Of a stretch of 64,000 bases of DNA, positions 9,636 to 37,817 are shown one piece after another (positions within the stretch are counted from its first letter, which is position 1; each line of letters begins with the position of its first letter). Made by a program: the position numbers and the translations under genes. Under the pieces are notes generated by a model. It ran no database searches. It was given only the letters and a program-made list of their open reading frames with translations, and was not told the DNA's origin. The DNA is taken from assembly GCA_048213135.1 (NCBI GenBank), contig PS015187.1, positions 1 to 64,000 of the forward strand. The letters are read 5' to 3'. This DNA is from Reclinomonas americana ATCC 50394. Its lineage: Eukaryota.

Positions 9636-12600
9636 ATGGCCGCATCAGACCCGCGCCTCTCCGCTATCCAACGCGAGGCCGAGCTCGCCGTCGACCGCGG
9701 CGACGACGCAACCAGCGAAAATCGCTTCGCCACGCTCGTCCGCGAGTGCGCGCGTGTGCTGGGTTCCGAACATCCGGACACACTCTTCTCCACCGTCAAG
9801 CACGCCGATGCGCTGCACGACCTGCGCGACTACTCGCGCATGTTGCACGTGCTGGAGAAGGTCATCCCGACACTCAACCGCGTGTGTGGCATGGATCACG
9901 AGTGGTCGATTGGCGCCGTGGCGCTGCTCAGTGAGGCGCTGATTGGTCTCGGACGTGTCGACGAGGGCGTCCGACATGCGCGCGATGCACTTGATTACGC
10001 GGTGGGGTACATTGTAGATGCCGATCATTGGGTGATTGGTTATGCGAGACAGGCGCTGGCCAGTGCCTTGTCGGCCTCGTCGGGAAATCGCAAGTTGATT
10101 GAGGAGGCGGTGGAGTTTGGGCGTGAGGCGCTGGAGTCTCGTCGGCGCAGTCACGGGGACGATCATCGAGCGACGCTCAATGTGGCGCACTTGTTTGGGT
10201 TGGTGTTGATGCGGTGGGGCAGTGTGGAGAGTGTGCGCGAGGCCGTGGAGTTGCTGGAGGGAACGGTGGAGCGGAGGAGGCGCGTGTTGGGTGCGGCGCA
10301 TGCGCATGCGCGGGAGACGGAGCAGTTGTTGGCCAATGCGCGGGGTCAGTTGGCGTCGTTGGCCATGGAGGAGTTGCAGCCACGGGAGGTGGTGATGGAG
10401 AGGGGGGAGCAAGGTGGGAAGGGAGGAAAGGGAGGAAAGGGAGGAAGGGAGGGAGAGAGGGAGAGATGGAGAGAGGGAAGGGAGTGGAAGGGAGTGGAAG
10501 GGAGTGGAAGGGAGTGGAAGGGAGGGGAAAGGAGGGAAGGGAGGGAGACAGGGGGAGGGAAGGAGAGGGAAGGGAGAGGAGGAGGAAGGAGAAGAAGAGG
10601 TGATGGACTGAAGGAGAGAGGGAGTGGCGAGGAAGGAGGGGGAAGGGGGACTGAGAGTGAAAGAGGGAGAGAGAAAGAGGGAGCGGAGGCAGCTTGGGTG
10701 GAGAGGAGATTAACAGAGACAAAAGGGGGGAGCAGAACGTGAATGAGACGGGCTGAGACTATTGGACGGAGAGGGAGGGAGAGGGAGAGAAAGGGAGCGA
10801 AGCAGCCTGACTGGAGAGGAGCTTAATAGAGACAGAGGGGGAGCAGAATGTGAATGATGACGGGCTGAGGGAGGGAGAGGGAGAGGGCGCACAGGCAGCT
10901 TGAGTGGAGATGAAAAACAGAGACTGTTGGCCAGGGCTGAGGGAGGATTGGATGAAGAGGGAGAGAGGAAAAGAGGAGAGGAAGGAAAGAGAGGAAGTCA
11001 GACAATGGAGAGAGAGGGAGACATAATGAGAAGGTGTTGTGCGAAAGAGGAGAGGAGCATAAGGAACACCCCCGTCCCCTCTCTCTCTGCTGTGTTGTTT
11101 TCTTCTCAAGTCTGCCTGTCTCCCTCACCTCCTCTCGCTTTTCTCATTCTCTGTACCTCATCACCTCCTTGCTTCTTCCTGCCTTCAATCCTCTTCATTC
11201 TTTTTTCCTGCCTCCCATTTTCATTCTCCCCCCTCTTTCCCCTTCCTGGCTCACCCCGTTTCTCACGCACCCAGCTGTCCGTCCCATTGCCAGCTCTCCG
11301 GTCAACGCCGTTTCTCCTCTGAACGCTGTCTCTCCAGTCCGCCCCATCTCGCCTGCCATTCCCAGCCCATCCGGATCCGCCAACACCCTGTCGCCCACAA
11401 GCGCTGTCTCTCCAGTCCATGCTGTCTCGCCCTCCGTGGCTGCCCTCCAAGCGCGCCCCATCTCGCCTATCAATGCGTTGCCTGTGCACTCCCGATCGCC
11501 CTCCGCCCCTTCTTCTTTTCAAGTGCGCCCCATCTCGCCTGCCAACTCCCTTTCGGCCTCCGACATGGCGCCTCTCGTGCGCCCCATCTCGCCGTCCCTG
11601 GCGCGCGAGATTGCCGCGGTTGATCGCGAAGCGGCACCACCGCTGGCACAGCCTCCGGTGCGTAATCGACCGCTTCCGCCACTGCCACCTGCTGTGCAGC
11701 CAGCGCCACCTGTGCAACCGGCGGCCAACGCAGAATCGGACGCATTGTTGCAGGTTCACTTCTCCTCTCCCGCGACGTCCTCCATTCACTCACTTGCGTA
11801 CACGTGCTGCAGGCGTACGCGCAAGATGCCGCAGAACAAGCGCGCCTCCGAGCTGCGACAGTCGCAGGTTACTTGCTGTACCCCCGCGCGTCTCTTTCGT
11901 CATTCTGCTCATTCGTGCCAGATCTGGAAGCGACTCGCCGCGAACTGGCAGCGGCCATGGACAGCCGCCGCAGGGTGAAGGAGCGGCTGCAGCAGCAGCT
12001 GGACGAGGCCATGTGCGAAGTACAGCGGTTGCAGGTCGCACTGGAGCACATGGACCGACATCGCGAGAGTGCCGTGGAGCGTGCCAAGACCGCCGAGCGC
12101 GATCTGGCGGCCCTGCTACAAAATGCCGCTGTGTATGGTTCTCTCTCTCTCTTCTATCGCTCACGCTCTCTCCTCATGAGCAGCTGACCATGCGCGCCAC
12201 GCAGAACCACCGATTGCATTCTCGTGGGAGCAGATGGTGTCCATGTCGGGCGGTTTTCGGGAGCCAGTCGGCGAGGGTGGGTCGGCCAGAGTATTCCTTG
12301 GCTTCTGGAACGGGCGGCGTGTCGTGGTGAAGCGATTCGACTCGACGGCCCCGTGGGCTGTGGCGTCGTACGACAGAGAGGTTTTGTTCGCCGAGGGTTG
12401 TACATGTTTCCCTGCGTTTTGTGTGCCCAGCTCATCAAATAGATAACAGGTGGAAATGTTCAAACGCCTCCTCCTTCCCGGTCTGCCTCGCATGTACGGC
12501 TACGCGCAATCCGATGCCGGAGAACGATGCATTGTGATGGAGGCCATGAGGTGTGCGGTCTTCTCCTATTTTTCCCTCAAAGGTCGAGCCCTCATTTTCT

Positions 12601-13745
12601 TGCAGTGAGCACAATCTGGAGCACCGCCTCTTGCACTATCGCGAGCGCGGACTTCCGGTGATGACCATTGAGGAGCGTATGGCGTGCTTCCAGCGGTGCT
12701 GCGAGATCGTCGCCTCTATTCAGAAGTTTCGTCACCGCTGTCATAGAGAGTGACGAGTGCGTGTGCACGTGCAGTGTGTCTTACTTGCTTTTCTATGTCT
12801 TTTGCAGGCTGGTGTGTATGCGCTGCTGTACGATGTTCCTATGTCGTCGTTATTGCTCACCATACCATCCGTGTGACATGTTCACAGGGTGGTAAGTCGA
12901 CGCGCCTTACTGCAAGTGCACTGATTTTCGCGATCCCCTCACCCCGTTCACAGTGATCCACCGCGACATCAAGCCAGACAATATTCTCTTCGACCAAGCC
13001 AACGTGGCGTGCGTGGCGGATCTGGGTATTGCCCACGGGTACTCCTCCGACAAGGTGACACTGTCGCACAGCATCCTTTTCTCGGTTCTCGTCACTCACT
13101 CCACTCGCATGCAGACGCACGTTGTCACGCAGTGGGCGGGCGACTTGCGTTACGCCGATCCACGGTCGCTGCATGATGAACTGACGCCAACCGTCGACGT
13201 CTTCGCGCTGGGCCTGGTGCTGGCACAGTTGTACATGGGCGTGGACACGGAGCACGTCCACGCGATCTTGCGGTCCGTCCGACGCCTGAGCGACGAGGAG
13301 CTCGCTCGCACGTGCGTGCAACATGCCGACACCGGTGTAGGGCGTCCTTGGCCGGCACCTCTGTGTGAGGGCATGGTCAGACTGGTGTTGCGGTGAGTGA
13401 TCCCCCGCAGCTCGTGAATTCCCTTGATCTTCTCAAAAAAGAAACGGCAGCTGCACGAGCATCACCGACGAGGGCCTTCGTCAGCGACCGACTGCGGCGG
13501 AGCTGGTGGTCGCCGCCCGCGACTTGGCCGTCATGTCGACCCGCCGTGCGTGTCTCGTGTGCAACGCGCTGCGCAATACGTGCCTGTATCCGTGTCGGCA
13601 TCAGGTGCTGTGCGCCGAGTGTGCGACGACGCTGGCTGAGCGTGGCTCCGAGTGTCCGATGTGCCGCGAGAGGTTTACGCGCTTTGAGAGCGATGATGCG
13701 CGGTTTGGGTATTGCACGTTTGTCGAGGAAGTGAAAGACAAGTGA
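9636..13745 (+). CDS. TPR repeats - Pro/Ser-rich linker - coiled coil - IRAK/Pelle(RLK)-like Ser/Thr kinase - C3HC4 RING protein
   Basis: Exon 1 has kinesin-light-chain-type TPRs (RVLGSEHPDTL, RRSHGDDHRATL, RRVLGAAHAH). A phase-1 donor at 10414 joins the phase-1 acceptor at 11274. Kinase motifs: FSWEQMVSMSGGFREPVGEGGSARVF, VVVKR, HRDIKPDN, DLG, GDLRYADP, DVFALG. RING: CLVC...PCRHQVLCAEC...CPMCR. Stop TGA at 13745. Confidence 0.8.
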
Positions 13746-13871: not shown

Positions 13872-16800
13872 TCATTCCTTGGCCGGTCGTGCGGCTGGTG
13901 GTGCGGCCGCCGACACCACGGGCAATGGACGCGGCGGCGGAGGAGCGGCTTCGTTCAAAAAGAGTTGATGCAACTCCGCGAGGTGGGCCTCGTTCTCCGG
14001 GCCGCACACCCTGGCGAGGCCGAGAACGAGCTCGCCGAGGCATTCGCTGTGCGCCACCACGTCGGCGAAGCCGGCGTGTGGTCGCATGAGCAGCCACTGG
14101 AGGGTGACCAGGCCGGAGACGCCATCGCGGCGGCCGACTTCGGAGTAGGACCAGAAGGAGCAGAGGGCGAGTGGGGGGCCCTGTGAGGGGGGAAGGATGA
14201 TGAGGGAAGGGGGAAGGGGAAGGGGAAGGGGGAAGAGGGGAAGGGGGAGGGGAGGCAAGAGGAGAAGGGAGAGGGAGAGGGAGAGGGAGAGGGAGAGGGA
14301 GAGGGAGAGGGAGAGGGAGAGGGAGAGGGAGAGGGAGAGGGAGAGGGAGAGGGAGAGGGAGAGGGAGAGGGAGAGGGAGGAGGGAGAGGGAGGAGGGAGA
14401 GGAGGAGGNNNNNNNNNNNNNNNNNNNNNNNNNNNNNNNNNNNNNNNNNNNNNNNNNNNNNNNNNNNNNNNNNNNNNNNNNNNNNNNNNNNNNNNNNNNN
14501 NNNNNNNNNNNNNNNNNNNNNNNNNNNNNNNNNNNNNNNNNNNNNNNNNNNNNNNNNNNNNNNNNNNNNNNNNNNNNNNNNNNNNNNNNNNNNNNNNNNN
14601 NNNNNNNNNNNNNNNNNNNNNNNNNNNNNNNNNNNNNNNNNNNNNNNNNNNNNNNNNNNNNNNNNNNNNNNNNNNNNNNNNNNNNNNNNNNNNNNNNNNN
14701 NNNNNNNNNNNNNNNNNNNNNNNNNNNNNNNNNNNNNNNNNNNNNNNNNNNNNNNNNNNNNNNNNNNNNNNNNNNNNNNNNNNNNNNNNNNNNNNNNNNN
14801 NNNNNNNNNNNNNNNNNNNNNNNNNNNNNNNNNNNNNNNNNNNNNNNNNNNNNNNNNNNNNNNNNNNNNNNNNNNNNNNNNNNNNNNNNNNNNNNNNNNN
14901 NNNNNNNNNNNNNNNNNNNNNNNNNNNNNNNNNNNNNNNNNNNNNNNNNNNNNNNNNNNNNNNNNNNNNNNNNNNNNNNNNNNNNNNNNNNNNNNNNNNN
15001 NNNNNNNNNNNNNNNNNNNNNNNNNNNNNNNNNNNNNNNNNNNNNNNNNNNNNNNNNNNNNNNNNNNNNNNNNNNNNNNNNNNNNNNNNNNNNNNNNNNN
15101 NNNNNNNNNNNNNNNNNNNNNNNNNNNNNNNNNNNNNNNNNNNNNNNNNNNNNNNNNNNNNNNNNAGAGGAGAGGAGACGGGAGAGGAGAGGAGAGGAGA
15201 GGAAGAGGAGAGGAGAGGAAGAGGAGAGGAGGAAAGAGAAAAAACAGATGAAATAAGGAAAGAACAGGGAGATAAGAGAAGATGTGAACAGACGAAATAG
15301 GAAGAGGAGATATGAGAAGTGGTGAGATGACAATAGAAGTGAACAAGAAGCAGAGAGGAGAATGGTGGGAAGGAGAGAAAGAGAAGAGATGTGAACAGAG
15401 GAGCAGCGAATGATGAAAAGAGAAAAAACAAAAGAGAATGAGATGACAAGGAGAGGGAAGAAGAGAAGGGACGACAACAGAAGAGAGGAGCAGTGAAGAG
15501 ATGAGAGGAGAAGAGAAGAGAAGAGGGGAAGCAACAGTGTCATCCCCTTTCCATCCAACAACGCACCGCCGAGCTGGCCGGTGCCTGCGTGTCCAACGCC
15601 ACGCGGAAGAGGCAGCTGTTGGGACTCAGCGCCACGTAGTCGCTCCCGTGCACAAACAGCATCTGCTTGCCGAGCTCGCCGAATTTGATCGCGGCCGGCG
15701 TGTCTTCCGGTGACAGACCGTGGCACGCACGTGGGGCGGCGCCAGCTGTGCTTCCGCTCGCCGCACTACTGCCGCTTCCGCTGCCCGATGCGCCGGCCTT
15801 TGGTCGCTTCAGTCCACCAAGCAGGCCTCCTATACTCTGGTCAAAAAACAAGGCGTGCTCATCGGTGCGCACAGCTGTCGCCTCACCGGCTTTCGGAGGC
15901 TTCGGTTGTTGCACCAGTGCCTCCACGGTGCCTGCGATCTGGGGCATGCAGGTGGGGAAGATACCGCAGCGCACCTCGAAACGCGTGCCGGGACCCTCGT
16001 CGACGAATGGGAAGGAGAGCTCGCGAAAGACCCAGCCGTGTTGCACAAAATTGAAGGTTTGGGTCATCAGGCGCGGACTGTCATCACATGCGGGTGAGGC
16101 AGAGCAGGGCAAAGAGAGAAAAACAAAAGAGTGAGGTATACCCTTCTGTCCTCCGGAAAAACTGCGACACGTCGGACACGGCCCAGGCGAATTCGATCGA
16201 CCCGGCGGCTGCGTCGCGCTTCGACAGCAGGTCGCGGATGACGGGTGGGAGAGTCAGAGGGTGCAGGCCGAGGCGGCCGAGAACCAGCACGCACAGCTCT
16301 CCTTTTGGGTATTCAGGGCCGTATTGGCCAATGTAGGGGACACTGGGGAGAGGGAGAGGGTGAGGAGAGTGGGGGAACAGAGAGAATCAGAGTGCATAGA
16401 CCTGAACATGCCCATGATGGGGTGCATGATTTCGTCCACGGTTCTGCCGTCCTCTAGGTGCAGAAAGAAGCGACGAGGGTCGTTTTGTTCCTTGCGTTTT
16501 TCCACGCAGACCTGCGTGGAGGATGGAGAGGAAAGAGGGAGTGAGGAAGGGGGAGTGAGGAAGGGGGAGGGGGAGGGGGAGTGAGGAAGGGGGAGAGGGG
16601 AAGGGAGGGGAAGGGAAGAGAAAGGGACAAGAGTATGGAGCGGATCAGGGGCAGTAGAAAGGGTGAAGAACAGTGGAAAGGATAAAAGTATCTTGAACAG
16701 GGTCAAGGTTCTGGAACGGAACGAGGGTTGTGAAAAGTGTCAAGAGTCGTGAAATGGTCAAGGGTGGCGGAGAGGATCAAGCGTCGTGGAAAGAGAGGGC

Positions 16801-18276
16801 CAAGAGTAAGGGAAACGGCCTTGGAACTGGAACGGGTCATGGGTGGTGGAAAGAGTTGAGGGTCGTCGAAAGGAATGAGCTGTTCCCACTTCTGACCCTC
16901 AACCATTGCACCTCGCCCTTTCCACGACCCAAGAGTGAAACTATCAGGCTACTGATTAGAAAAGCAGGGAGTGAATATGGAAGGGAAAGAGTTGTGAGTG
17001 ACACCGAAGCTGGTGAGAGAAGGAGCGGCGGATTAATAATTGAGGGTCGGAAAAACAAAAGCAAAGAGAGGGAGGCTCGTTGCGAGTGACAGCGAAGCTG
17101 ACGAGAGAAGGAGCGGCGAGTCAATGGTTGGGGGTCGGAAAAGCACAGCGGAGACACACCAAGGAAAGAGAAGGAGACTCGTTGTGAGTGACAGCGAAGA
17201 TGACGAGAGAAGGAGTGGAAACTCAATGGCACAGGGTAAGAAAACAAAAGCAAAGAGGATGAAACTCGTTGTGAGTGACAGCAAAGATGACGAGAGAAAG
17301 AGCGGCGGGTCAATGGTTGAGGGTCGGAAATCCAAGAGCAAAGAGAGGGAGACCGTTGTGAGTGGCAGTGAAGCGGAACGGACGCTCAACGGTTGAGGGC
17401 CAGAAAAGTACAACAGAGACACACCTAGGAAAGAGAAGGAAACACGTTGTGAGTGACAGTAAGACGACGAGAGAAAGAGTGCAGGATCAGTGACTGCGGA
17501 TAAGAAAGTACAACAGTGAACACTATGAGGCTGTGCATCACAAGGGAATGCAGAGGAAAACTCATTGTGAGTGACAGCAAAGAGGAGGAGAGCCATCGTG
17601 CTACATGGCAACGAGTCAATCAACACAAGAGCACGTTGAGACTGACCTGTTGACCTCCCACTCGCCCGTCCACCATGTCCAGTTGTGCGACATCAGCTGC
17701 CAACAGATCCACGGCATGGGCATGATCGCCGACGGGAGCCATGGAGGGTGGCGAGGGAGGTGGAGTGTGGACTTCGTCGCGGAGGGCGGAGAAGGTGAAG
17801 TAGGTGTTGAGGGCGGCCTGTGGCGGAGGGGCATGAGAAGTGGGAGAAAAGAAAAGGCGAGTGGGACGTGAGGAGATATGAATAGTGAAGGGTGAGCGAT
17901 AGGGATGGAGAAGAGTGTGAGCAATGGACGGTGAGAGAGATGGAGAGAAGAGAGGAAGATGTGACGCCTTATCGCTTGCCTAACTCACAGTATCTCTCTC
18001 ACTCACTCACTCCTCACTCTCTCACTCACTCACTCACTCACACACACATACACACTCACACACACACTCACTCACTCACTCACTCACTCACTCCACACAC
18101 ACACACTCTCTCTCTCTCTCTCTCACACTCACTCACTCTTCTCTCCTCTTCTCCCCCTCCCTCTCCTTATTGCTCACCTGCACATCCCAATCATGCGACC
18201 TCAGCATCTCCCTTGCTGCATCCTCATCCCGTGTTCCGCTCAGCACACAAAACTGCGAAACCTTCACTGCATCCAT
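13872..18276 (-). CDS. Protein with an N-terminal UBA-like (UBA_4-type) domain and an uncharacterised C-terminal domain
   Basis: Exons 1+2 splice to MDAVKVSQFCVLSGTRDEDAAREMLRSHDWDVQ|AALNTYF, matching the QF..hTG....A...L....WDhQ.Ah..YF UBA-like pattern of DCN1/p47/TDP2. Further exons at about 16400-16510, 16140-16335, 15568-16075 and 13872-14180. Confidence 0.7.
16990..17590. repeat. Degenerate ~88-100 bp tandem repeat (about 7 units, core GTTGTGAGTGACAGCGAAGATGACGAGAGAAGGAG) in an intron
   Basis: The core recurs near 16991, 17079, 17180, 17268, 17355, 17446 and 17565. Confidence 0.8.
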
Positions 18277-18335
18277 GACGATAAAGTGACTTACAATGTC
18301 CTGTGAGCGTCTTGAAACGTTTAGTTGTTCATTGC

Positions 18336-21300: not shown

Positions 21301-21554
21301 TCACCGGCAAGCCGGTGATGACGGTGGGCGAGTGGTCGCTGGAGTGGGACGACTCGCCTGCCTCATTGCGCGTCATGGAGCTGGTGGACAGCAGCGAAGG
21401 AGTGGAGTGGACTCCGCGTATCGCTGAAGCCATGTTCACCGTAGGCATACGATGCATGAGTCTGCGACGTGATCGGCCGACAGCGCAGGAGGTACTCGAC
21501 GTGATGCGGGCGTTGCGGGAGGCGTGCGGACAGTTTACGATGGTCATTGATTGA
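18336..21554 (+). CDS. Ankyrin module x2 - Pro/Gln linker - coiled coil - IRAK/Pelle(RLK)-like kinase
   Basis: Two homologous ankyrin blocks (GCTPLQTAACNGH...STALHLAALNGR; GVTPLMIAGSCGN...TVLHYAARNSR) and a Q/E/L-rich heptad region. Kinase: FEWTEIVHATDSFSPRLKVGEGGQGAVF, VAIK, HRDIKPSN, DFGIAR, GTLDYLDP, DVFSMG, RRDRPT. Start is 18336 (ATGAG|GTGTGT) or 18296. Confidence 0.85.
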
Positions 21555-22055
21555 ACTGGGAGGCAGAGACAGTGCGATTCAGTCTGCAAAAATCTTGCAC
21601 TGCCTGCACATCGAGCACCTCCTGTGCCATCTATTGACCGCGTTACAGACTTATGCAACGTCAAGCATGGCATCAGCGATACGTGAAACTGTCGTCGACC
21701 ATATATATATATGCGTGACGCACTTGATTTAAAGTTGGTTAGAAAGAAAGCACTCACAAACAAAACACTTCATTCACCACATTCCAATAATGCGACAAAC
21801 GACCACATGTACAAATCCCTTGCCGACAATCACCTTGGCACACCAACAATATAGAAACGCATAATTACATTCTCCTCAATGATTGCGATCGCGAAGTCGA
21901 CCTGTCTTCCCTTGCATTAGTTTTAATTCTCCCTCCTCTTTCTTCCCGATCAGCTGACGGATGCAACCAAGTATCTTCTATTCCGTCCTTCGCTCTCCCC
22001 GTCCTGTCCGTCTTGATCTTCTCCGGATCTCTCCGCCCCTTCCCCCTTCTCCTCC

Positions 22056-23141
22056 ATGATCCCCCACAAAACCATCCTCTCCGACTTCCTCGCGGTCCTC
22101 ACCCTCACCCTCACCCGCGACGGCCGCCACCTCATCACCGGCGGCCACGACCACATTGTCCGCGTGTGGACACTCACCGACAACGGAACTTCTGTGCGTG
22201 CAGAAGAAGAGCCACTCAAGCTGGAGGGCCACACCAGTGTCATCAAGTGCCTCGCCACCACACCCGACGGCATACGCGTCGTCTCCGGCAGTCAAGACTC
22301 GACAGTGCGCGTGTGGTCACTGGCCACTGGCGAGGCACTCTTGCCGCCCATGCAACACGCCCGCCTCACCTGTCTGGCAGTGTCGCCTTGCGGTGAGCAC
22401 GTGGCCACCGCCAGTCGGGACACCAGCATATGCGTGTGGTCGTTGCGCACGGGGCAATTGGAGCACGTGCTGAGCGGGCATCACGGACCGGTGACGTGCA
22501 TGGCGTACACGGCCGACGGAGAGCGCATCGTGGCGGGGGACTTTGCGGCGAAAATACGAGTGTGGTCGGCAGCACGTGGAGAACTGCTGCGGCACGATGA
22601 CGCTGGGCGCACGGGTATTCAGGCGCTGGTGATCACAGGCGACTACATTGTAACAGCGAGCATGGACCACGTGGTGCGCGTGTGGTCGCTGAGCAGTGGG
22701 GAGCTCGTGCGGGAGATGGCCGGCCATACGAGCTTCGTGACGTCACTGGCGGTGGTGCCGAGCGGGCGATTCGTGGTGAGCGGCAGTGATGATAGGGATC
22801 GGTCGGTGCGGGTGTGGGCGGTGGAGACGGGCGAGGAGGTGCTGGTGTTGAGGGGCGCGACGGCCAAGGTGAATGGTGTGGTGGTGTCGCCGTGCGGGGG
22901 GCGCATTGTGGCGTGTGATGGGCACGGGGAGGTGATTGTGTGGTCGACGGTGTGGGGGTTGGCGTGCGAGGAGCTGGCGGCGGCGCAAATGGCGGCCAAG
23001 GTGGTGAGGGAGGAGATGTGGAAGGAGGGGGAGGATGGGGTGAAGGGGGAGGAGCGGTGCTTGGCGGAGCAGGTGCTGCGGTGCTTTATGGTGGAGGAGG
23101 CGCAGGTGGTGGTGAGGAGGAGAAGGGAGGAGGGTTGGTGA
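22056..23141 (+). CDS. Intronless WD40-repeat (about 7-blade) protein
   Basis: Repeated GH...V..LA.TPDG.RVVSGS.D.TVRVW units in a single 361-aa ORF. Confidence 0.85.
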   Translation: MIPHKTILSDFLAVLTLTLTRDGRHLITGGHDHIVRVWTLTDNGTSVRAEEEPLKLEGHTSVIKCLATTPDGIRVVSGSQDSTVRVWSLATGEALLPPMQHARLTCLAVSPCGEHVATASRDTSICVWSLRTGQLEHVLSGHHGPVTCMAYTADGERIVAGDFAAKIRVWSAARGELLRHDDAGRTGIQALVITGDYIVTASMDHVVRVWSLSSGELVREMAGHTSFVTSLAVVPSGRFVVSGSDDRDRSVRVWAVETGEEVLVLRGATAKVNGVVVSPCGGRIVACDGHGEVIVWSTVWGLACEELAAAQMAAKVVREEMWKEGEDGVKGEERCLAEQVLRCFMVEEAQVVVRRRREEGW

Positions 23142-27500: not shown

Positions 27501-30500
27501 CGTGCGCAGCTGTGCAGAGAGTTGCGTCTCGTGGAGAGAAGGCTGTGAGGGCCTTTCATTACCCCCTCTCGTATCTCTTTGCAACCTCTTTCTGTAGCTC
27601 TGATTCTCTTTCCCTCTCACGCCACCCTCTCCTTTTTCTCGCTCTTTCGCGCTCGCTTCACTCCTATCTTCCTTATTATCTGCATCTGCGTTGCAATTGT
27701 CTCGCTTCCCTGCCTCTTTCTCTCTTTTGTTTCCCGTCCTCTTTCTTGCAACTGCGTGTCCGTCTCTGCCCTCCCATCCCAGTCCCGCTTGTATGTCGAT
27801 TCACTTGCGCAGTGCAGCTCTCTCATTGTCATGCAAGATCGGCAGTTCTCTGCCTCTCGCTTGAACTCTCGTCTGCCCTCCATCTCATCGCGTCTTGTCT
27901 CATCCCCAGTGCATCTCCCTCCCACTCACTCCGCTACATCTCTTTGCCTTCTCCTGCCCTCACCCTTTTCCCTTCTCAGAACCCCTCGTCACCATCCTTC
28001 AAAACCTCGACTCGCACCTACAACACTTTGGCCAGCAGCAGAGCGTGCGCCTGCGCTCTGCCTTTGCCGTCACCTTCAGCACGCTCGTGCGTCAGTGTAC
28101 ACCATGGGCACCGCAGACATCATCAATACCGCCGCCATCCGTGGACCTCGCGCACCAATTCGACTCGTTCATCTCCTCCTCCACGCACGACGTCATGCTG
28201 CTGCTGGGATCCGCCGGCACCGGCAAGTCCTCCATCCTCGCCGCCCTCGCCATTCGCGCCTGCGAGGCGTGGCTGGAGAAGGCGCCCAACTCGCGCCTGC
28301 CCATTCACATCAACATTGCGGCGCTCACCGACCCGCGTCACGGCCTCTTGTTGGAGACACTGCAGATGGCGAATCCGGAATTCTGCGAGGCCGACCTGAC
28401 ATGGATGTGTCGCATCCCACTGCTGCTGTTGGTCGACGACTATCACCTGCTGCCGGAGGATGTGAATTTGTTTGCGTCAAACAAGGTGTGGTGCGCGTGG
28501 GAAAGGGTGTCTTTCTCGGGTCTCTCGCCACCATTCTGTTTCATCCTGCACTCACTCTCTCTTCCATGGCTCTGTTTCTTTCTTCGTCATATTGCGGGGT
28601 TTGGTGGCAAACTACGTGTGCTTGCTAGTGGTGCCCGTTTTTCTTCTTCTTCTTCTTGTACTCCTTTGACTACCACACTCTTCTTCTGTCCAGTTCCGCT
28701 CTCTCACACAGTTCCTCGTCGTGGGCGAGTGTGACACTCTTTCTCTTTCTTCTTCTTCTTCTTTCCTTCTTCTCCTCCTTCTCGTTCTTCTTCTCCTTAC
28801 TCTCTTTCCTTTTTCATGTCCTCCTCTTCCTCTCTCCTCCTCCTCATTATCCTCCTGCACCTCCCCTCGTCCTTCTTCTTTTTCTTGTTTCTCTTCTTCC
28901 TCTCCCTCTCTTCTTGTTCCTGACCTTGTACTTGTCGTTCCCCCTGTTCTCCTCTCCTTGGTGTTCTTCTTCTTCTTCTTCTTCTTCTTCTACTTCTTCT
29001 TCTTCTTCTTTTCGTTCTTCTTCTTCTTCTTCTTCTTCTTCTTCTTCTTCTTCTTCTTCTTCTCCTTCTCACTTTCCTTCTTCATGTCCTCCTCTCCCTC
29101 TCTCCTTTTCCTCCTTATCCTCATGCACCTCCTCCTCGCCCTCTTCTCCTCCCCCTCCTCCTTCTTCTTCAACTTCTTTCCTTCTTCTCTTCCTCCTCGT
29201 CGTCTTCTTCTCCTCCTCCTTCTTCTCCTTCTTCTTCCTCTCGCTCTCTCATTCACTCACTCTATCTAGTCATGCCATCTTTGCCACGCACTCGACCAAC
29301 CAATGCATCGTTTCTGCCACCCTCACTGTATCGCTCGCTGTCTTCCTCGTCTTCTTCTCCGTCTGGTCACTCATCTGCACTCAACGATCAATCATAACTC
29401 TTCTTTCCTTCAGCGTTATCTTCATTCCCACCTCTGCTTCTCTCGTGTCTGCCTCTTCCCTTCTGTTTCACAGTTATTCTCACGCATTCTTCTCCCTTTC
29501 CCTTATCTCCCCCTTCCCCTCCCCCCAGCTCTTCCGCTACGGCGACATCAAAATGCTGCTCACCCTCCGCCCCGAACGCCTCTCCCGCATGGGCGACACC
29601 CCCCTCCTGTATTTCGCACCCCCGGCCAGCGCCGACTCGCCCTTTCTGCGTTTCGACGCCGTGCACCAACTGCGACTCGGTCCACTGGACTCAGACAGCG
29701 CCTCGCTATCTACCCTGCGCGTCATGATGCAGTCGGCCGAATTTGCGACGCACGACCTGCGCCTCCTGTCGACTCGTTGCGAGGACCGCCTGCGCGCTGC
29801 CGACGCACCCATGCGTCAGCTGTGTCGCATTTCCGCGGTGTTGCTGGAGTGGTTGCGGAGGGTGGCGGCCGGGCAGGGTGCGACGCAGACGTGGCGCACA
29901 CTGGCCGAGTGGTGGATCGAGCAGGAGACGGCACGACTGGCGCGTCCCGCCACTCGGCATTATTTGCCGACGGCCGCACAATGCCTGCGCTTCTGTCGCC
30001 ACATGGCGCTGTGCATGCAGCGACATGCGCAGACCAGCACCCTCGTGCACGTCAGTGCCTCGGACGAGTTGCCGACGGAGATTGCCGAGCATTTGCAGAG
30101 TTTCCGTGGACCGCCAGCCGCGCACCTGGACGACGTGCAGCCGTTCTTCAGTGACACGGCGACTGCGCGCCTGCTGCGCCGGTGCACGCCCCTGGTGCAG
30201 CTGGTTGGCCCGAACACGTGGTCGTTTGTCGGTGCCGATTTGGCGGGCGTGTTGGCCTCACTGCCCGTCGAGCCGAATGACACGTTGGAGAGGTTACGCA
30301 AGAGGGACAGAAGAGTGAGAGAGGGTGATGTTATGAAGTGAGTTTTGATTGTCAGTCAGCGCAGGTTATTCATGGAGATGCGAGGAGCTGAGCTTGTCGG
30401 TGAGGATTGCTTCCGCATTCACTGATGTGGCTTTTCATTTCATCTTTATCACTCCTTCTCCGCCCTGTCCTTTTGTTCACGACTGTCGCAGTGAATCTGC

Positions 30501-33500
30501 AACCGGTGACGTCGGTCGGCGACGAACTGCAGCACGAGGAGGAGGAGGAGGAGGACGTCGATGCAGTACCCTCTTCGCAAGCCTCGCAGCAGGAGTTAAG
30601 TGGCGCCATGCGGAAAGCGGATCACTACATTGCAACCTCACTCATTCTCCATGATCGCAGGAGGCACGCCTTGTCTGTTCAGTTGCAGCGCGCCATGGGC
30701 ACCGTGGTCCTCGGTGTGGTGCGGCAGTTGCTCGAATTCTGCTGGCCGCGGTTCATTGCGGTGGTCGGTGTGGAGGAGCCTCCGTTCCGCATTGACAAGC
30801 TGTGGGCCGACAAGAGTGATCCGCAGTTCTTTAGGTGCGTTCTTACTCGCACAGGGGTTTGCATGAGGGTTCACATGGTCTATCTCTCTCCCTCGCTGTT
30901 ACGCTGCTTGTCTCGCTCGCCGTATCGCTCCCTGACTCTCTCCCTGTCGCACCCCCTCTCTCGCGTTCTGTCTCGTTCCCGGTCTCGCTGCCTGTCTCGC
31001 TTCCTGCCTCACTTCCTGTCTCGTTCCCTGTCTCGCTCCCTGTCTCGCTCCCTGTCTCGCTCCCTGTCTCGCTCTCTGTTTCGCTCCCCGTCTCGCTCTC
31101 GTTTCGCTCCCCGTCTCGCTCCCTTTCTCACTCTCCGTTTCGTTGCTTGTGTCGCTCCCTGTCTCACTCCTCGTTTCGATCCCTTTCTCGTTCCCCGTTC
31201 TGTCCTTGTCTCGCTGCCCGTTCTGTTCCTTGTCTCGCTCCCTGTCTCGTTCTCAGTCTCGTTTTCTGCTCACTTTCTGTCTCGCTCCCTGTCCTGCTCC
31301 CTGTCTCGTTTTCTTCTCACCTCTTGTCTCGCTCCTTGTCTCGCTCTCTGTCTCGCTCCTCGCCTCGATCCCTTTCTCGCTCCCTATCTCGCTCCCTGTC
31401 TCGTTTTCTCTGTTATGGTGTCTCTCTCGCTTGTTTCATTGTTCTCGTCAACACACCCGCTGTCTTTATATTCTTGACTCCCGCCCTTCCTACACTCCCC
31501 TTCCCGCCCCCTTTCCCACTCCTTCCCCCTCACCCTCCCCCTTCGCCTCCCTCCCCGCTCCCCCCCCCCCCCCCCCCCAACGGTACGAATGCGACCACGG
31601 CCGCGCTCGCATCGACTCCTACTTTCAGCGAGAACACGTGAGCAAGTTTGCGCACACTGGCGTCGCCGCGGAATTGGACCTCAGCACCATGTGCACTCTC
31701 CTCACGCGCCTCTGCTATCGACTGCCGAGTCAAGACGCACTGTCGCGACAGCGTAGCCTCGTGCACAACATGCTGGGGGCGTCGACCGTGCACAGTGCGG
31801 CACTGCTGGTGCGCGGCTCGGTCGACCGCAATCGCAACTGGGACGTTGCCGCCGACCACGATGACGCATCGCTGGCGTTGCTGTTGCCACGACCCGCGGT
31901 GGTGAGTGGCTTCGAGATCTGTCTCTTTGACGGCTTGTCGTTGACCTCTTTTTTTGCGCAGCGCGAGGCCGTGGACACCATTCGACTCGTTCGAAACGAG
32001 TCGCAGCACTTTCTCACGCAGTCCGGTGTCGACAAGACGGTGTTTGAGGCGTTGAGCGCCCGCTTGGAGACGCAAGTGCGAGTCATTCACGAGTACCTTG
32101 GTGGTGTGGCGAGTTGCAATTGGGTGGATGAGCTGCGCGAGGCCATGTCGGTGGTGGCAGGTGGGGTGGAAGGGAAAGGGAAGAGGGAGGTCGTGAGGGG
32201 AGAGGGGAGAGGGGAGAGTTGAGAAATGGGAGAGATTCACTCATTTCGCTTGCCCGTTAGCTTGCTGCATTCTTTTCACTTAGTGAGAGCTTTCTTAACG
32301 TCGCCATGTCACAACAGAGGCAGGGAATGTGGTGCGAGTGAAGAGAAGCCGCGAAGAGAATGCAGCGCATAAAGTACGACGACGAGAGAGAGGGAAAGAG
32401 GGGCCATGGAAGTTACATGAGAGAGGCGACGAGTACGTGAGAACGAAAGGCGAAACTTGACCTGATGAAGAGGCATGATCAAGATGCTAACTTTCCCCTC
32501 CCTTTTTCCCCTCCCTCCCTCACTCCCCCTTCGCCCCTCCCCCAGTGGGCCTGCGCAACGTCCGCTCCCTCACTGAACGCCTCCACTCTGCCTGCCGACT
32601 GCAAGCCGCCATGATGGACGAAGACGCGCAACTCTGCAAGCTCCTGTCCTCCTTTGTCAACCTCGACTGCACACCCACGGCTGGCGACTCTGAGCGGCGA
32701 CTGGACCTGCTCTCTGAGGTTTTGTACAAGATCGAGAAATCCCTTTCTCTCCTCTTTGTCAAATCCCCTCACCTGTTTGTGCAGATGAAAGCCTTCGTTT
32801 CACACCCATCCGCCCGCGTGCTGCTGGTGATGGGCGAGAGCGGCGCCGGCAAGTCGCTCAGTTTGACCGTGTTTGCGCGCCAGCTGCTGACAACGGGCAA
32901 TCCGCTCGGACATCGCTTCGTGCTGCGAGTCACACTGTCGTCGTTGCGCAACGCCCGCGAGACGCTGCTGTTGGAGACGCTGCAGCATGTCGACGAGTCA
33001 TTCACAGCGGCCGATGTGGAGGCCATGCACAACATTCCGCTGTTGCTGCTGCTCGACGGTTACGACGAGCTGTATTCGCGTGTCAACTTGTATGAGAGCA
33101 ACCAGGTGAGATGGGAGAAGGGGAATAGAGCAGAGAGACGACCGTTATTACAGAGCGCTGTGTCACTTTCTTCTGTGGCAGCACATTCTCTCGTCTCGTG
33201 CTGATGAAGTTGGCACGAAAGGCACAACTGTCTGCACCGTTTGCTCACTTCACTTCTGCCTCTCTCCTCTTCCTTCTTCACCTTCTTCCTTTTTAATGCG
33301 GTTGCTCACACTCCACCTTCTCCCTCTCTTCTCTTCGCCTTCTCCGCCTTCTCCCTCCTTCTCCGCCTTCTCCGCCTTCTCCGCCTTCTCCGCCTTCTCC
33401 GCCTTCTCCGCCTTCTCCGCCTTCTCCGCCTTCTCCGCCTTCTCCGCCTTCTCCGCCTTCTCCGCCTTCTCCGCCTTCTCCGCCTTCTCCGCCTTCTCCG

Positions 33501-36500
33501 CCTTTTCCATCCCTTCTCCCTCCCTTCTCCCTCTCTTCTCCCTCCCTTCTCTCTCTCTCTTCTCCCTCTCTCTTCTCCCCTTCCCCCTCCTTCTCCCTCT
33601 CTTCTCCCTCTCCTCTCCCCTTCTCCCTCTCTTCTCCCTCTCCTCTCCCCTTCTCCCTCCTTCTCCCTCCTTCTCCCTCGTTCTCCCTCCTTCTCCCTCC
33701 TTCTCCCCCTTTCTCCCCCTTTCTCCCCCTTCCCCTTACCCCTTCCCCCTCACTTCCCCCTCACTTCCCCCTCACTTCCCCCTCACTTCCCCCTCACTTC
33801 CTCCTCCCTGCAGCTCTTCCACTTCACCAACCTCAAACTCATCATCACCTGCCGCACGGACTACGCCGGCCTCCTGGCGACATCATCAACCGCCGCCGGC
33901 CACTCGCACCTCGCATGCTTCGCCCCCGTGCCCCACCTCGGTGGCAAGCCGCAGGAGCACCTGGTCGTGGAGCGCTTCGTGGCGCCCTTTTCACCGGCGC
34001 AGATTCATCGCTACCTGCTGCAGCGGCAGAATACTGCGAGAGACGATGGCGACAATGACGATGACGAGCAAGGGGGTGGAGGTGACAAGCGACAGAGCCG
34101 TCGCCGAAAGCGAATGACGGTGGAGGTGAGCTTGGAGAGGCAGCTGGAGGCGGTGCCGGGACTGGCCGCACTCGTCACCACACCGTTCCTCCTCGCCTCG
34201 GTGGTGGACGTACTGCCGCAGCTGGTCTCCACGCCATGGCACCTGCAGGATGATGCTTCTGCTGCTGTTGGGAATATTGACTTGCGACCGCCGATGCACA
34301 AGGCGCAAGTGTTGGACTTGATTGTGGGTCAGTGGATTGAACGTGAGCGACAGCGGCAGGCGAAACTCGCACACATTCATGTGCCGAGTACGCGCGCCTG
34401 CTTGGAGTACTGTGAGGCACTGGCCGGCCTGATGCATCGTCGTGGACTGGTGCGCCTGTCGCTGCAGGAGGCAGAAGAGGAAGACGTGGATCGTGAATTT
34501 CGCGTGTTCTTCCACCACGAGCGATGCGTGCCACTACTGCAGTGCTGTCCGGTGGTGCAGCGTGCGGGAGCGTCGTCGTGGTTCTTCTTGCATCCGTCGC
34601 TGCAGGAGTACTTTGTGGCGCGCCAGGTGTTTGCGCTGGCCTCGTGGCCCGGCGACGACGCCATGACGCACGACGCGATGCGTGCACACATTCTCAATGC
34701 GCGGCCGCTGGCCGAGCATCCGTCGCTGTTGCGCCTGATCGGTCCGGTGGTGCGCCAAGATGCGGGTGGCCCGCTGCAGCGTCGCCTGTGGGATATGGTA
34801 TACGGCAGTCGAGTACCGGCGGCGCGCCTGCACGTGGCCTCGGTCAATGCCGCCACGATTCTGTGCGCCGCGCAAGTCTCATTCTCCCGTCGCGATTTGT
34901 CGTTTGTGGATTTGGCCGGCGCCGACTTGCAAGACGCCATCATGCACCGAACAGTGTTGCGTGGGGCCGACTTGCGCGGTGCAAACTTGTTTAGTGCGTT
35001 CTGTCGGGAGGCCGTGATGGTGGAGTGTGCGCTGTCCAACTCGTGCTTGCCGCGCCTTCCCCTGGCCGGTCACGCCGCCGTCGTGTGCTCGGTGGCGGTG
35101 GCGCCCGACGGCCGCCGTATTGTCAGCGGCAGCCTCGACGGCACTGTGCGTGTGTGGAATGCGGTGACGGGTGAAGAGTTGCGGCAGGTGTACGGTCACG
35201 CCGGTGCCGTGCACGCCGTGGCGGTGTCGAGCAGCGGGCGGGCGTTGGTGACGGGCTGCGTGGACAAGCGTGTGCGTGTATTTGTGCTCGACACGGCCGC
35301 CATTGTGCGCGTGTGGCACGGCCACGAGGACCCCGTGTTTGCCGTGGCGGTGTCGGTGTGTGAAAAGTACGTGGCCAGCGCGAGTGCCGAGTTTTTCGGT
35401 GGCGAGGAGGCACCGCTGCGCGTGTGGGCCGTGATCACTGGCGAAATGTTGTTTGCGCTCGAGGGACACACCAGTGGCGTCACCTCCGTGGCCTTTGCGC
35501 CTGACAGCCGGCGCGTGGTGAGCGGCAGCTGGGACCGCAGTGTGCGCGTGTGGTCGGTGGAGAGCGGCTTGCAGTTGTTGCAGTACGACGTGCACTCCGA
35601 CTACGTCATGTCGGTGGTGGTGACGCCGGACGGGCGGCACGTGCTGTCGGCCAGCTCCGACACCACGGTGGCCGTGGTGGCGCTGGAGAGTGGGGCATTG
35701 GTGCGCCGCCTGCAGGGCCACACCAAACCAGTGACGGCGGTGGCGCTCTCGCCCGACGCGCGTCTCATTGTGACCGGCGGCGATGACCGCTCGGTGCGCG
35801 TGTGGTCCGCCGAGACCGGCGACCAGCTGTACGAGCTCGACAGTCAGGCGCAGCATGTGCGCTCCATTGGTATGACGCTCGATCAGCAGTACGTGGTGAC
35901 CGCCGGCGGCGACGACAACCTCATTCGGCTCACGGGTGTGTCGGCCGACAACAAGGCGCGTCGTCTGGAGGGTCACACCGCCGCCGTGGTGGCCATGACG
36001 ACGGCCGCCGACGGTCGCTACATTGTCAGTGGCACGGCCGACGACAAGGTGCATGTGTGGCTCGCCAGCACGTGCGAGGAGGTGCGACAGTGGCGAGTGC
36101 CGGCGCACGGTCTCACCTCACTCGCGGTGACGGCGGACGCACGCTACGTCATCACGGGTGGCGCCACCGACAAGTCGGTGCGCGTGTGGTCCGTGTGGAG
36201 TGCCGAGGAGGCGCGCAGCGCGGTGCGACGGCACAAAAAGGCGGTGACGGCGGTGGCCTGCTGCGCCGACGGCCACGTGGTGGTGTCGTGCGCCGCCGAT
36301 GAGTGCCGCCTGCTGGTGTGGCACCACTTGCTCGACGACGACTCTCACGCATTGCGTCCGATCAAGGTGCGCGTCGACGGCGAGCGCTTCCTGGCGGTGG
36401 CGGTGTCGGCGGATGGCGTGCGGGTGGCGGCCTCGTGCACCGACGGCCGCGTATACATTTTCATGGCCGAGACGGGCGAGCAGAGTCGCGCGCTGCTGGC

Positions 36501-37817
36501 CGGTGCCGGCGGTGATCTCGCATCGCCGTGCGTGTGCTTCTCGGTGGGCGGCGATCTGGTGGCGGCCGGCTGCCAGTCGAAGACCGAGGGGCACGTGGTG
36601 CGCGTGTGGCAGGTGCTGACCAAGGAGGAGACGCACTGCTTGCGTGGTGCGCTCGACGCGGTGCGCACTGTGGCCTTCCTTCCGCAGCAGCATCGGCGGG
36701 AGACGCCGGTGGTGGTGGCGGGTGGCGTGGATGGGATGGTGCGGGTGTGGGCGTGTGGGGAGGATGGTGGTGGGGAGGTGGTGGGGGAGCTTGGGGGGCA
36801 TACGGAGGTGGTGACGGCGGTGGCTGCTGGGGTAGGCGGGAAGGGGGTGCAGGTGGTGTCGGCCAGTGCGGATCGGTCGGTGAGGGTGTGGAGCGGGTGT
36901 GGGGAAAGGTTGGTGGATCCGAAGGGGAAGGCTGAAGGGGAAGGCTGAAGGGAAAGGGGTAGAGAGGGAAAGGGGCAGAGAGGGAAAGGGGCAGAGAGGG
37001 AAGCGGTGAAAAGGGAGGGATTGAAGGAGAAGGAAGAGGAGGAACGCAAAGAAGTCCAGCATGCTTATGAGAAGAACAGAAGTTGAAAGCGAGGTCAGAG
37101 AGAAACGAGACCGAATAGGAGAGCAGAGATTCGTTGACTGTGGGGAGCAGAGATGACAGAGTATCAGTGTTTCGAGAGTGCCATGTTGGAAGCGTTAAGG
37201 TCCACATGGGAATAGGAGCAGTGGACTCGAAAGGAGAAGTGCCATGTGCTGCTGATGGTGGAGGGCTTAGAATGTTGGTTGGATGTCTGTCAAGCTGTGG
37301 GCGGTAGCACATCAAGGGATGGAATGCAGAACGAAGACTGGGTCTGCAAGTGAACGATGTTGTGATACTGACGGCAGTGTTGCAAAGCATTGAAAGAGAT
37401 CGAGAGCTGAGGGAAATTGAGTGACGACTGAGATGTGAGTGGTTGGAGAGAAGTGAGCGGCGATGGACATGAGAGTGACGTTGAAGGGATTGTTGAGAGA
37501 TACAACTTGGGTTGGCAGAGATGAGAGTGGGTAAGATGGAAGAGGGATAGTACGATGAAGACATGATTGACTTGGTGGAAGTGTTTCGATGGCACAGTTG
37601 GAGAGGTGTGTGCCTGAATGCGTCCTGGTTCTCAATCCTTGCTTCCCCCTTTGCGCGCAGTCCCTCGCCACCCGTTCTGTGGCAAGTCATCGGCACCTTC
37701 AACGCCGACTTTCGCGGCTGCAACACGAGTGATTCCACCGGCAAGGACACGGTGGCGTCGGCGAATGTGCGTGCGCTGGCCGGAATGTCAGGCATGTGGA
37801 GGCCGGTGGTGACGTGA
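24503..37817 (+). CDS. NLR-like STAND protein: FYVE-like zinc finger - unknown region - NACHT (degenerate) - NACHT - pentapeptide repeats - WD40 repeats
   Basis: Start MGATQS. FYVE-like: CGGCGKSF..FVRGR|RHCKRCGNPVCSDC...RLCESC. Walker A/B pairs: GSAGTGKS / LLLVDDYH and GESGAGKS / LLLLDGYDE. Winged-helix motif WFFLHPSLQEYFVA. Pentapeptides: DLSFVDLAGADLQDA...GADLRGANL. About 14 WD40 units. Terminal exon 37661-37817 is phase-compatible. Two internal junctions (near 30300 and 31580) are ambiguous. Confidence 0.75.
28965..29060. repeat. (TTC)n microsatellite in an intron
   Basis: Visible directly in the sequence. Confidence 0.95.
30950..31400. repeat. Degenerate 12-bp tandem repeat (CTCGCTCCCTGT)n in an intron
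   Basis: Visible directly in the sequence. Confidence 0.85.
33335..33505. repeat. 9-bp tandem repeat (CTTCTCCGC)n in an intron
   Basis: About 16 perfect units. They produce the artefactual LLRLLR / EKAEKA ORF text. Confidence 0.95.

Follow-up and report, generated by a model that had tools for sequence, protein, structure and literature searches.

Old local duplication probably accounts for much of a neighbourhood of kinase and NACHT NTPase genes in Reclinomonas americana

Do the kinase, repeat-protein and NACHT NTPase genes that lie side by side on contig PS015187.1 of the protist Reclinomonas americana ATCC 50394 (GenBank assembly GCA_048213135.1) form a defence locus whose members work together, or is their proximity a product of the way in which the genes arose? 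We analyzed the first 64,000 nucleotides (nt) of the forward strand of this contig (hereafter the window), following up an original prediction that had proposed a physically clustered, fast-evolving innate-immunity locus. Our analysis points, on balance and with modest confidence, to a neighbourhood of lineage-specific signalling genes whose main sources were domain shuffling and the duplication of genes in place long ago, and which is not demonstrably one functional unit. The anatomy of this neighbourhood is real, and we define it better than the original prediction did; the claim that it is a cluster in the functional sense is an analogy, and the name “defence locus” would likewise be taken from an analogy of domain classes. 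By the same kind of analogy, the proteins are of types that serve in surveillance or stress signalling, and they may plausibly help to sense non-self or damage.

We scanned 134 stop-to-stop open reading frame (ORF) translations of at least 60 amino acids, taken from 9-39 kb of the window with extreme compositions excluded, and observed a Pfam family at E≤0.01 in 15 of the 134. Together these ORFs cover every domain class named in the original prediction, i.e., TPR, ankyrin, WD40, kinase, RING, UBA-like and STAND NTPase. Gene models were built by chaining exons on codon log-odds scores (dynamic programming), after which splice sites were examined by eye and frames were verified. The resulting models confirm that the genes are physically clustered at 9.6-37 kb, and they give a set of seven intron-bearing genes (A, E, B, C, D, F and G, with E and D on the minus strand) in place of the six consecutive genes predicted. 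The RING domain, which had been counted as a gene of its own, belongs to gene A, as its last exon. The interval originally proposed (9636..37817) does begin at the ATG of gene A, and its last part, 36949-37817, lies outside any recognized gene, the stop of gene G being at 36948. Of the single NLR-like STAND gene that had been proposed, G is borne out, but two tandem NACHT genes are present, with the NACHT match of F falling below the cut-off. Spacing between these genes is tight in three places, with 166 bp between the start codons of E and B, 502 bp between B and C, and 389 bp between F and G. Coordinates are collected in Table 1.

Comparison of the window with itself identified three sets of local paralogues. 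Of 266 aligned residues in the kinase domains of A and B, 89 are identical (33.5%); the two domains have four intron positions in common, and in both genes one exon is exactly 101 nt long. Three ankyrin modules, two of them in tandem in gene B and one inverted in gene D, show 53-54% identity in protein and 66-72% in DNA. The P-loop exons of F and G, with 37% identity (E 3e-19), share the intron position at which they end, and the next exon is 26% identical over 119 amino acids (E 1e-6); on these matches F is a paralogue of G, and the two are tandem copies. These domain architectures, this paralogy and these conserved intron positions are direct observations, and the duplications are old, with synonymous divergence (dS) of 0.84-1.07. 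Much of the clustering would then be old local duplication, not an assembly of unrelated partners.

We propose that two ancestral gene types were copied in place, i.e., a coiled-coil kinase and a NACHT STAND NTPase. The kinase type would have been cytosolic, with an IRAK/plant receptor-like kinase (RLK)-type catalytic domain behind a coiled coil, and its present forms would be gene A, with TPRs in front and a RING E3 behind, and gene B, with two ankyrin modules in front; gene D would be a kinase-less, inverted remnant of the B type. The NACHT type would now be represented by F, which has no recognized sensor repeats, and by G, which has pentapeptide and WD40 repeats, with the WD40-only gene C and the UBA-like gene E sitting between these genes. 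G, and perhaps F, may act as nucleotide-driven switches, probably held off by C-terminal repeats, that would oligomerize once a ligand binds those repeats. A and B would be active RD kinases, recruited through TPR or ankyrin surfaces and dimerized by their coiled coils, and A would also ubiquitinate through its RING. Activity, the sensing of ligands and any link to defence are what we infer here.

Table 1. Genes, exons, domain-bearing ORFs and N runs in the window, with positions counted from its first nucleotide.
Feature	Coordinates	Strand	Description
Gene A	9636-13745	+	8 exons, 702 amino acids; TPR array, coiled coil, IRAK/RLK-like kinase, C-terminal RING
Gene A, exons 1-4	9636-10413, 11922-12137, 12184-12380, 12450-12550	+	
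Gene A, exons 5-8	12606-12739, 12954-13054, 13115-13392, 13442-13745	+	
Gene A, last exon	13442-13745	+	end of kinase leads directly into C3HC4 RING, then stop codon
Gene E, first coding exon	18178-18276	-	ATG at 18276; UBA-like domain; GTGAGC donor
Gene B	18442-21554	+	8 exons, 847 amino acids
Gene B, exons 1-4	18442-18937, 18996-19663, 19838-20342, 20413-20600	+	
Gene B, exons 5-8	20669-20769, 20836-20950, 21015-21122, 21189-21554	+	
Gene C	22056-23141	+	single-exon WD40 propeller protein, 361 amino acids; ATG-to-stop ORF
Gene D	23363-24027	-	exons 24027-23512 and 23428-23363; one ankyrin module and short tail
Gene F	26736-32222	+	NACHT-like P-loop NTPase, ~902 amino acids by dynamic programming; outer exons uncertain
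Gene F, P-loop exon	28036-28485	+	
Gene F, winged-helix-like exon	29535-30290	+	
Gene G	32611-36948	+	NACHT, pentapeptide repeats, about two WD40 propellers
Gene G, exons	32611 or 32785 to 33105; 33814-36948	+	intron of 708 nt, CT-rich, GT-AG, read directly
Gene G, pentapeptide segment	34894-34989	+	between NACHT module and WD40
Gene G, WD40 repeats	35071-36927	+	Pfam 275 bits, 8 stretches scored
TPR_10/TPR_12 ORF	9549-10739	+	Pfam
Pkinase ORFs	12896-13393, 20937-21158, 21162-21551	+	Pfam
RING (zf-C3HC4_3) ORF	13428-13742	+	Pfam, 43 bits
UBA_4	~18178-18276	-	Pfam, 29.7 bits when exon scanned alone
Ank ORFs	18400-18996, 18902-19834	+	Pfam
Ank ORF	23194-24198	-	Pfam
WD40 ORFs	22017-23138, 33208-36945	+	Pfam
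NACHT ORF	32491-33201	+	Pfam, 29.8 bits, cut-off 26.7
Weaker P-loop/NACHT-like ORF	27865-28731	+	Pfam, 19.6 bits, cut-off 26.7
N runs	1137-1681, 8257-8903, 14409-15165, 25573-26447		
N runs, continued	40810-41802, 42898-43298, 60020-60807		

Gene A combines four kinds of domain in one model, which is in frame, without internal stops and with GT-AG introns throughout (by manual inspection and dynamic programming); it is least certain at its first long intron (1508 nt) and at a weak donor, GTCATA, at 12740. Its TPRs score 47.9 bits with TPR_10 and 47.3 bits with TPR_12, and the NCBIfam model FxSxx_TPR spans residues 22-247 at 67 bits, under the cut-off of that model. The kinase (Pkinase, 46.9 bits) has the motifs VVVK, DRE, HRDIKPDN and DLG. 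In a search of solved structures by sequence, its C-lobe exon matches IRAK4 best (E 7e-8), followed by PERK, FERONIA and CERK1, and its N-lobe exon has no significant match in the PDB. The RING at the end of the protein scores 43 bits with zf-C3HC4_3, against a cut-off of 27, has the C3HC4 pattern, and aligns to the RING of MGRN1 with all Cys/His ligands; its nearest solved relatives are the RINGs of MGRN1 (E 2.3e-6), MUL1, CGRRF1 and cIAP.

Gene B begins with two paralogous ankyrin modules, followed by a P/Q-rich linker, then a coiled coil of ~165 amino acids and finally an IRAK/RLK-like kinase, in a manual model that is in frame and has GT-AG introns of 58-174 nt. Pfam scores are 58-70 bits for Ank_2, and 36.5 and 30.5 bits for Pkinase, and the kinase motifs are VAIK, ESE, HRDIKPSN and DFG. 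The best PDB matches of the C-lobe exon are a plant lectin receptor kinase, IRAK4, BIK1, SYMRK and BRI1, and those of the N-lobe exon, besides one designed repeat protein, are a LysM receptor kinase, IRAK1 and CERK1; the segment just before the kinase also aligns with the LysM receptor kinase (FEWTEIVHATDSFS in gene B versus FSYDELATATDNFS). A word-index search of longer proteins with the C-lobe exon gave 806 candidates, none of them at E≤1e-3. We considered dividing the two ankyrin modules between two genes and rejected this, since a clean, in-frame, 58-nt GT-AG intron joins them.

The original prediction had called these kinases IRAK/Pelle-like. In three of the four kinase exons of A and B the best natural solved relatives are indeed IRAK4/IRAK1 or plant RLKs (E 7e-8 to 1e-4), and the fourth has no significant match; Pfam recognized no death-fold family in any ORF of gene A or gene B, where the N-termini are TPR and ankyrin. 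The description therefore holds as a resemblance, and membership of the IRAK/RLK clade is putative. By reading, both models begin with soluble repeat domains, which makes the proteins like receptor-like cytoplasmic kinases at most. Because the catalytic lysine, the helix-C glutamate, HRDIKPxN and D(L/F)G are all intact, A and B look like active kinases of the RD type.

Gene D carries a third ankyrin module, which is 53-54% identical in protein and 66-70% identical in DNA to each of the two modules of gene B, and a tail whose last seven residues are identical to the C-terminus of B, with a 23-nt match at 91%; the second exon, which holds this tail, comes from the dynamic-programming model alone. 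From the ankyrin identity and the shared tail we conclude that gene D is, by its sequence, a truncated and inverted paralogue of the B type that lost the coiled coil and the kinase. Over 165 aligned codons, the ratio of nonsynonymous to synonymous divergence (dN/dS) between ankyrin modules is 0.33-0.39, at dS values that are near saturation, and the ankyrin paralogues are under purifying selection, somewhat relaxed. With this ratio gene D is not decaying freely. The term “ankyrin decoy” is best taken as a label for a truncated B paralogue with a putative decoy role. Fast evolution, which the original prediction had proposed and suggested checking by dN/dS on the repeats, is not what we found: the ankyrin ratio is as above, and the WD40 units of gene G are divergent from one another.

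Of the two NTPase genes, G is the better defined. Its NACHT domain (PF05729) scores 29.0-29.8 bits against a cut-off of 26.7 and, reading with the Walker A and Walker B motif definitions, we find GESGAGKS, LLLLLDGYDE and IITCR in the expected order. Repeats that form a C-terminal superstructure are present as pentapeptides and WD40: the pentapeptide segment scores 37.7 bits with PF00805 (residues 361-392 of the translated 33814-35100) and 25 bits with NCBIfam pentapeptide models, and six cleanly delimited WD40 units have a mean pairwise identity of 0.38 and a maximum of 0.52. No internal DNA repeats were found in the WD40 region at E≤1e-5. From the first ATG there are ~65 residues before the P-loop, with no Pfam match, and neither G nor F was found to have an effector or adaptor domain N-terminal to the NTPase. 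We modelled the module after the P-loop (33814-34878, 355 amino acids) with AlphaFold from a 10-row alignment, with a predicted local distance difference test (pLDDT) score of 70.1 and a predicted template modelling (pTM) score of 0.67. The top matches listed by Foldseek against the PDB are chains of NLRC4, NLRP14, NLRP9, NAIP, NOD2, NLRP3, NLRP7 and NLRP2, or oocyte complexes (the oocyte lattice and the subcortical maternal complex, SCMC, which contain NLRPs); they are weak, with a best E of 3.6e-3, none at E≤1e-3, and template modelling (TM) scores of 0.3-0.4. We read these matches as a consistent, though weak, sign of an NLR-like fold. When the P-loop exon of G was searched by sequence against solved structures, only ABC and DotB ATPases at E>0.2 and no NLR were returned, and PADLOC gave only P-loop-level matches of 11-18 bits. 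Judging from its domains and motifs, we class gene G as a genuine NACHT-plus-WD40 STAND protein.

Gene F scores 19.6 bits with NACHT, below the cut-off of 26.7, and 24.9 bits with AAA_16. No recognized repeats were found in its tail (30.5-32.2 kb), and degenerate tandem DNA repeats (70-77% identity) lie at 30884-31432, in what is presumed to be an intron or the tail region. Between the two NTPase genes, at 32490-32611, a long pyrimidine tract ends in CAG at 32545, in frame upstream of the first ATG of G. Because this site resembles an acceptor, a further exon may precede the first one of G, or a single transcript with two NACHT modules may cover both F and G.

Relatives of gene G are distant. 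An exhaustive HMMER search of 1.84 billion representative sequences with the module after the P-loop returned 110 relatives at E≤1e-3, with 7 at E≤1e-10 and none at E≤1e-30; identities are ~30%, E values reach 1e-13, and the alignment consensus shares the motifs of G. Among the best 20 of these 110, WD40 is present in 18, NACHT in at least 5 and pentapeptide repeats in at least 3, and by this domain content G belongs to a family that has the same architecture elsewhere. A word-index search with the same module found mostly pentapeptide proteins and one long eukaryotic protein (25% identity), and 37 of its 38 matches either cover at most 35% of the query or are pentapeptide proteins. In addition, a scan of prokaryotes with one genome per species gave 86 pattern matches, of which 46 encode relatives of the NACHT module of G, in 44 loci, at 20-29% identity (tblastn E 2e-21 within the candidate set). 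These loci are found in Mycoavidus metagenome-assembled genomes (MAGs; 28 loci), one Gammaproteobacteria MAG chromosome (10), another Gammaproteobacteria MAG (2), Tatlockia (2), Chlamydiae (1) and Bacteroidota (1), taxa of mostly intracellular or endosymbiotic bacteria. Three of the 44 loci were scanned for domains: L044 has NACHT-pentapeptide-WD40, like G, and L010 and L001 have ARM_5-NACHT-WD40. In the Gammaproteobacteria MAG with 10 loci, all ten G-related genes (L002-L006, L008, L009, L011, L012 and L044) lie head to tail within ~45 kb (~1.175-1.220 Mb). Since the identities are only 20-29%, G and the bacterial proteins appear to share a family and not a recent transfer. Close relatives were absent from the very large protein and metagenome databases that we searched with genes C, B and G and with the ankyrin modules; for example, a metagenome scan with the ankyrin-module alignment gave 168 pattern matches and only one relative, a weak one at 29% identity. 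This lack of close relatives may reflect rapid divergence or simply an unsampled lineage.

The two remaining genes are smaller. Gene C scores 164.6 bits with WD40 and has 388 relatives at E≤1e-3 among 5.8 billion proteins, the best of which are WD40 proteins of mostly bacterial or metagenomic origin at 33-40% identity; its identity to the WD40 part of gene G is 33%. We also considered gene C as the C-terminus of gene B, and rejected it because the stop and tail of B are conserved in D. The first exon of gene E scores 29.7 bits with UBA_4 against a cut-off of 21.8, and we place the remainder of the gene somewhere in 15.5-18.2 kb on the minus strand, where a coding-like exon downstream in the gene (15543-16085) has no Pfam or NCBIfam match. 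Degenerate tandem DNA repeats at 16991-17592 (70-77% identity) also lie inside this stretch. The start codons of E (minus strand) and B (plus strand) are so close that a shared divergent promoter is suggested between them, at 18276-18442.

How do these genes compare with known systems? TPR, ankyrin and WD40 are repeat types typical of NLR sensors; one study (PMC4986451) reportedly describes fungal NLRs with ankyrin, TPR or WD40 sensors, and another (PMC7145615) is said to deal with the origins of algal NLRs. Compared with NACHT-WD40 STAND NTPases (NLRC4, NOD2 and NLRP3, and fungal, Chlamydomonas and cyanobacterial proteins), gene G has the P-loop, a DGxDE-type Walker B, a TCR sensor motif, a putative helical/winged-helix module, with weak structural matches to NLR entries among those listed, and C-terminal WD40 repeats, but it differs in the pentapeptide segment between NACHT and WD40 and in that no N-terminal effector or adaptor was found. 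Fungal HET-E-type genes have near-identical repeats, in contrast to the divergent WD40 units of G; with units this divergent and no internal DNA repeats among them, the fungal-type signature of hypervariable repeats is absent. The NACHT-pentapeptide-WD40 proteins of metagenomes and intracellular bacteria (P0160, P0161 and L044) have the same domain order and a homologous NACHT module, but the bacterial genes are very distant in sequence and without introns, and the versions in Mycoavidus and Chlamydiae have ARM_5 in front. PMC7159879 links the NACHT-WD40 STAND architecture to apoptosis, immunity and conflict systems of animals, fungi and multicellular bacteria, and PMC4773052 describes NACHT-WD40 in the green alga Chlamydomonas, similar to a protein of Nostoc.

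On the kinase side, A and B differ from IRAK and Pelle in having no death domain, the front being TPR or ankyrin plus coiled coil, and from plant RLKs such as BIK1 and CERK1 in that no signal peptide, membrane span or ectodomain was recognized in them by reading alone. KEG (Keep on Going) has an N-terminal RING, a kinase, ankyrin repeats and HERC2-like repeats. Gene A, like KEG, has a RING E3 and a kinase in one polypeptide, and gene B, also like KEG, has ankyrin repeats with a kinase; gene A differs in its TPR front and in having the RING at the very C-terminus, and we liken these proteins by architecture, not by sequence. KEG is given as a RING-type E3 of Arabidopsis in PMC3697954. A literature search, with supplements outside its scope, found no paper on a TPR-kinase-RING fusion or on a NACHT-pentapeptide-WD40 family. 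In the Pto/Prf system of tomato, kinase paralogues surround an NLR that guards them. Here too, paralogous cytosolic kinases of the RLK/Pelle type and NLR-type genes lie in one short interval, but the NLR is NACHT-WD40 and not NB-ARC-LRR, and the likeness is one of arrangement only. The tomato Pto/Prf gene cluster is named in PMC11537850.

The surrounding sequence of the window reads as eukaryotic, with GC-rich exons (GC content at third codon positions ~0.74 in training exons), GT-AG introns that are typically 46-70 nt, with a few long, low-complexity ones, and spacers rich in CT/GA microsatellites. The 7 N runs, of 401-993 N each, are embedded in GA/CT-rich simple sequence; they lie between genes or in long introns, and no reported domain is interrupted by them. 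In the flanks, 2 of 113 ORFs have a Pfam match, both kinase-like and both in a downstream tandem array at 45500-57100, which consists of three copies of a ~3.9-kb unit, with many ORF pairs 70-98% identical. Each unit has a kinase-like ORF that matches Pkinase, APH and Pkinase_fungal (49461-49943, 42 bits; copy at 53388-53762) and is unrelated to the kinases of A and B. For the “nuclease-kinase array” named in the original prediction, then, the kinase half stands, and the Pfam scan of the flanks gave no nuclease domain. At the upstream SPRY gene that it also named, 3937-4323 on the plus strand is coding-like with weak matches to the SPRY domains of TRIM9/TRIM67 (E 0.047-0.053), and has no Pfam match at E≤0.1. 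Exons of an FkbM-type methyltransferase (42353-42793 and 43526-43885, minus strand; Methyltransf_21, 27.7 bits) are unrelated to the signalling genes, and several short LRR exons at 61443-62366 on the plus strand (LRR_4 25.6-25.9 bits, just below the cut-off) belong to another repeat-protein gene.

What alternatives are there to duplication in place? We think it unlikely that this is a co-functional innate-immunity locus kept together by selection, as the original prediction had it by analogy, with F and G as sensors and A and B as kinases of one pathway in which the RING E3, the UBA protein and C and D as adaptors or decoys also take part. The parts list does match plant and animal immune signalling: kinase exons match IRAK4/IRAK1, BIK1, CERK1 and the “Protein kinase” chains 2qkw_B/3hgk_A, which we take to be tomato Pto, and the fold model of G matches only NLR entries among the matches listed (weakly, at the best E given above). 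The tight gene spacing (166, 502 and 389 bp), the purifying selection on the kinase-less gene D, as on a decoy or adaptor, the relatives of G in intracellular bacteria, which often copy host signalling proteins, and the Pto/Prf gene cluster, named in PMC11537850, also speak for it. However, duplication explains much of the clustering, Pfam found no death-fold, TIR, CARD or other adaptor domain that would link the NACHT proteins to the kinases, and G has only ~65 residues before its P-loop. UBA_4 is a domain type of p97 adaptors and is not known from immune proteins, and in a finding selected from a very large scan striking coincidences are expected. Equally doubtful is a pure chance adjacency of ordinary genes, in which unrelated housekeeping or developmental signalling genes would have come to lie together and the NACHT proteins would have a role other than defence. 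Few eukaryotic domains are commoner than kinase, WD40, ankyrin, TPR and RING, unrelated genes are present in the window (the FkbM-type methyltransferase, a membrane protein and an ARM-like gene), no diversifying selection was found where it was tested (ankyrin dN/dS and the WD40 units of G), and the expected-number calculation described below allows chance. Yet the combination of NACHT and C-terminal repeats is both rare and specific, and PMC7159879 and PMC4773052 tie it to apoptosis, immunity and conflict systems. Two NACHT genes beside two RLK/IRAK-like kinases are also more specific than “common domains” implies, and the retention of paralogues argues that these families are actively maintained here. 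That the neighbourhood is an acquired island, a landing zone for foreign genes in which NACHT-pentapeptide-WD40 genes were exchanged with intracellular bacteria, we regard as extremely improbable, even with 44 prokaryotic loci encoding relatives of the NACHT module of G, the same domain order in one of the three loci scanned (L044), and the mostly bacterial or metagenomic best relatives of gene C. Identities are only 20-29%, and both F and G have spliceosomal introns at a shared position and a codon bias like that of their neighbours, from which we conclude that they are long resident; for endosymbionts, moreover, transfer from host to bacterium is more likely than the reverse.

The reading that we prefer, i.e., signalling genes multiplied mainly by old local duplication, depends in part on a calculation of how many such runs of genes a genome should contain, made under independence, with assumed domain fractions of 5-20% and 10,000-30,000 genes. 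With four independent founders (the kinase ancestor, the NACHT ancestor, C and E), 0.06 to 48 runs are expected per genome at these assumed fractions. Coincidences are also made more likely by the fact that the finding was selected from a very large scan. Several points weigh against our preference. If the seven genes are treated as independent, fewer than 0.4 runs are expected per genome, even at a frequency of 20%, so that the chance estimate depends entirely on the discount for duplication and on the assumed frequencies, and real enrichment is possible; the founder count of four is a judgement, and the domain fractions are assumptions and not genome-wide data. Within 28 kb, TPR_10/12, ankyrin and WD40 repeats stand beside a pair of NACHT genes and a pair of IRAK/RLK-like kinases, and with more LRR and kinase-like genes in the 64-kb window the neighbourhood may be part of a larger specialized compartment. 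Lastly, the models of E, of F and of the ends of A come from a home-made codon-score predictor, which made first-pass errors for A and B.

What would the neighbourhood mean for the evolution of immune signalling? It is very unlikely, in our estimate, that it is a working guard-and-signal module of the Pto/Prf kind, with NACHT sensors, IRAK/RLK-type kinases, including one that carries a RING E3 in the same protein, and a kinase-less ankyrin paralogue, in a eukaryote outside land plants and animals. If it were, partnerships of kinases and NLRs would have arisen independently of, or before, plant and animal immunity, and the NACHT-pentapeptide-WD40 relatives in intracellular bacteria would be mimicry of host surveillance proteins. 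If the genes do act together, they would be a rare linkage of an NLR switch with a Pelle-type kinase outside plants, animals and fungi, and would offer a handle on the first assembly of immune signalling modules. Even without co-function, the TPR-coiled coil-IRAK/RLK-like kinase-RING fusion, the double-ankyrin kinase with its kinase-less paralogue, and the NACHT-pentapeptide-WD40 family shared with endosymbiotic bacteria are reference points that inform the evolution of these domain families.

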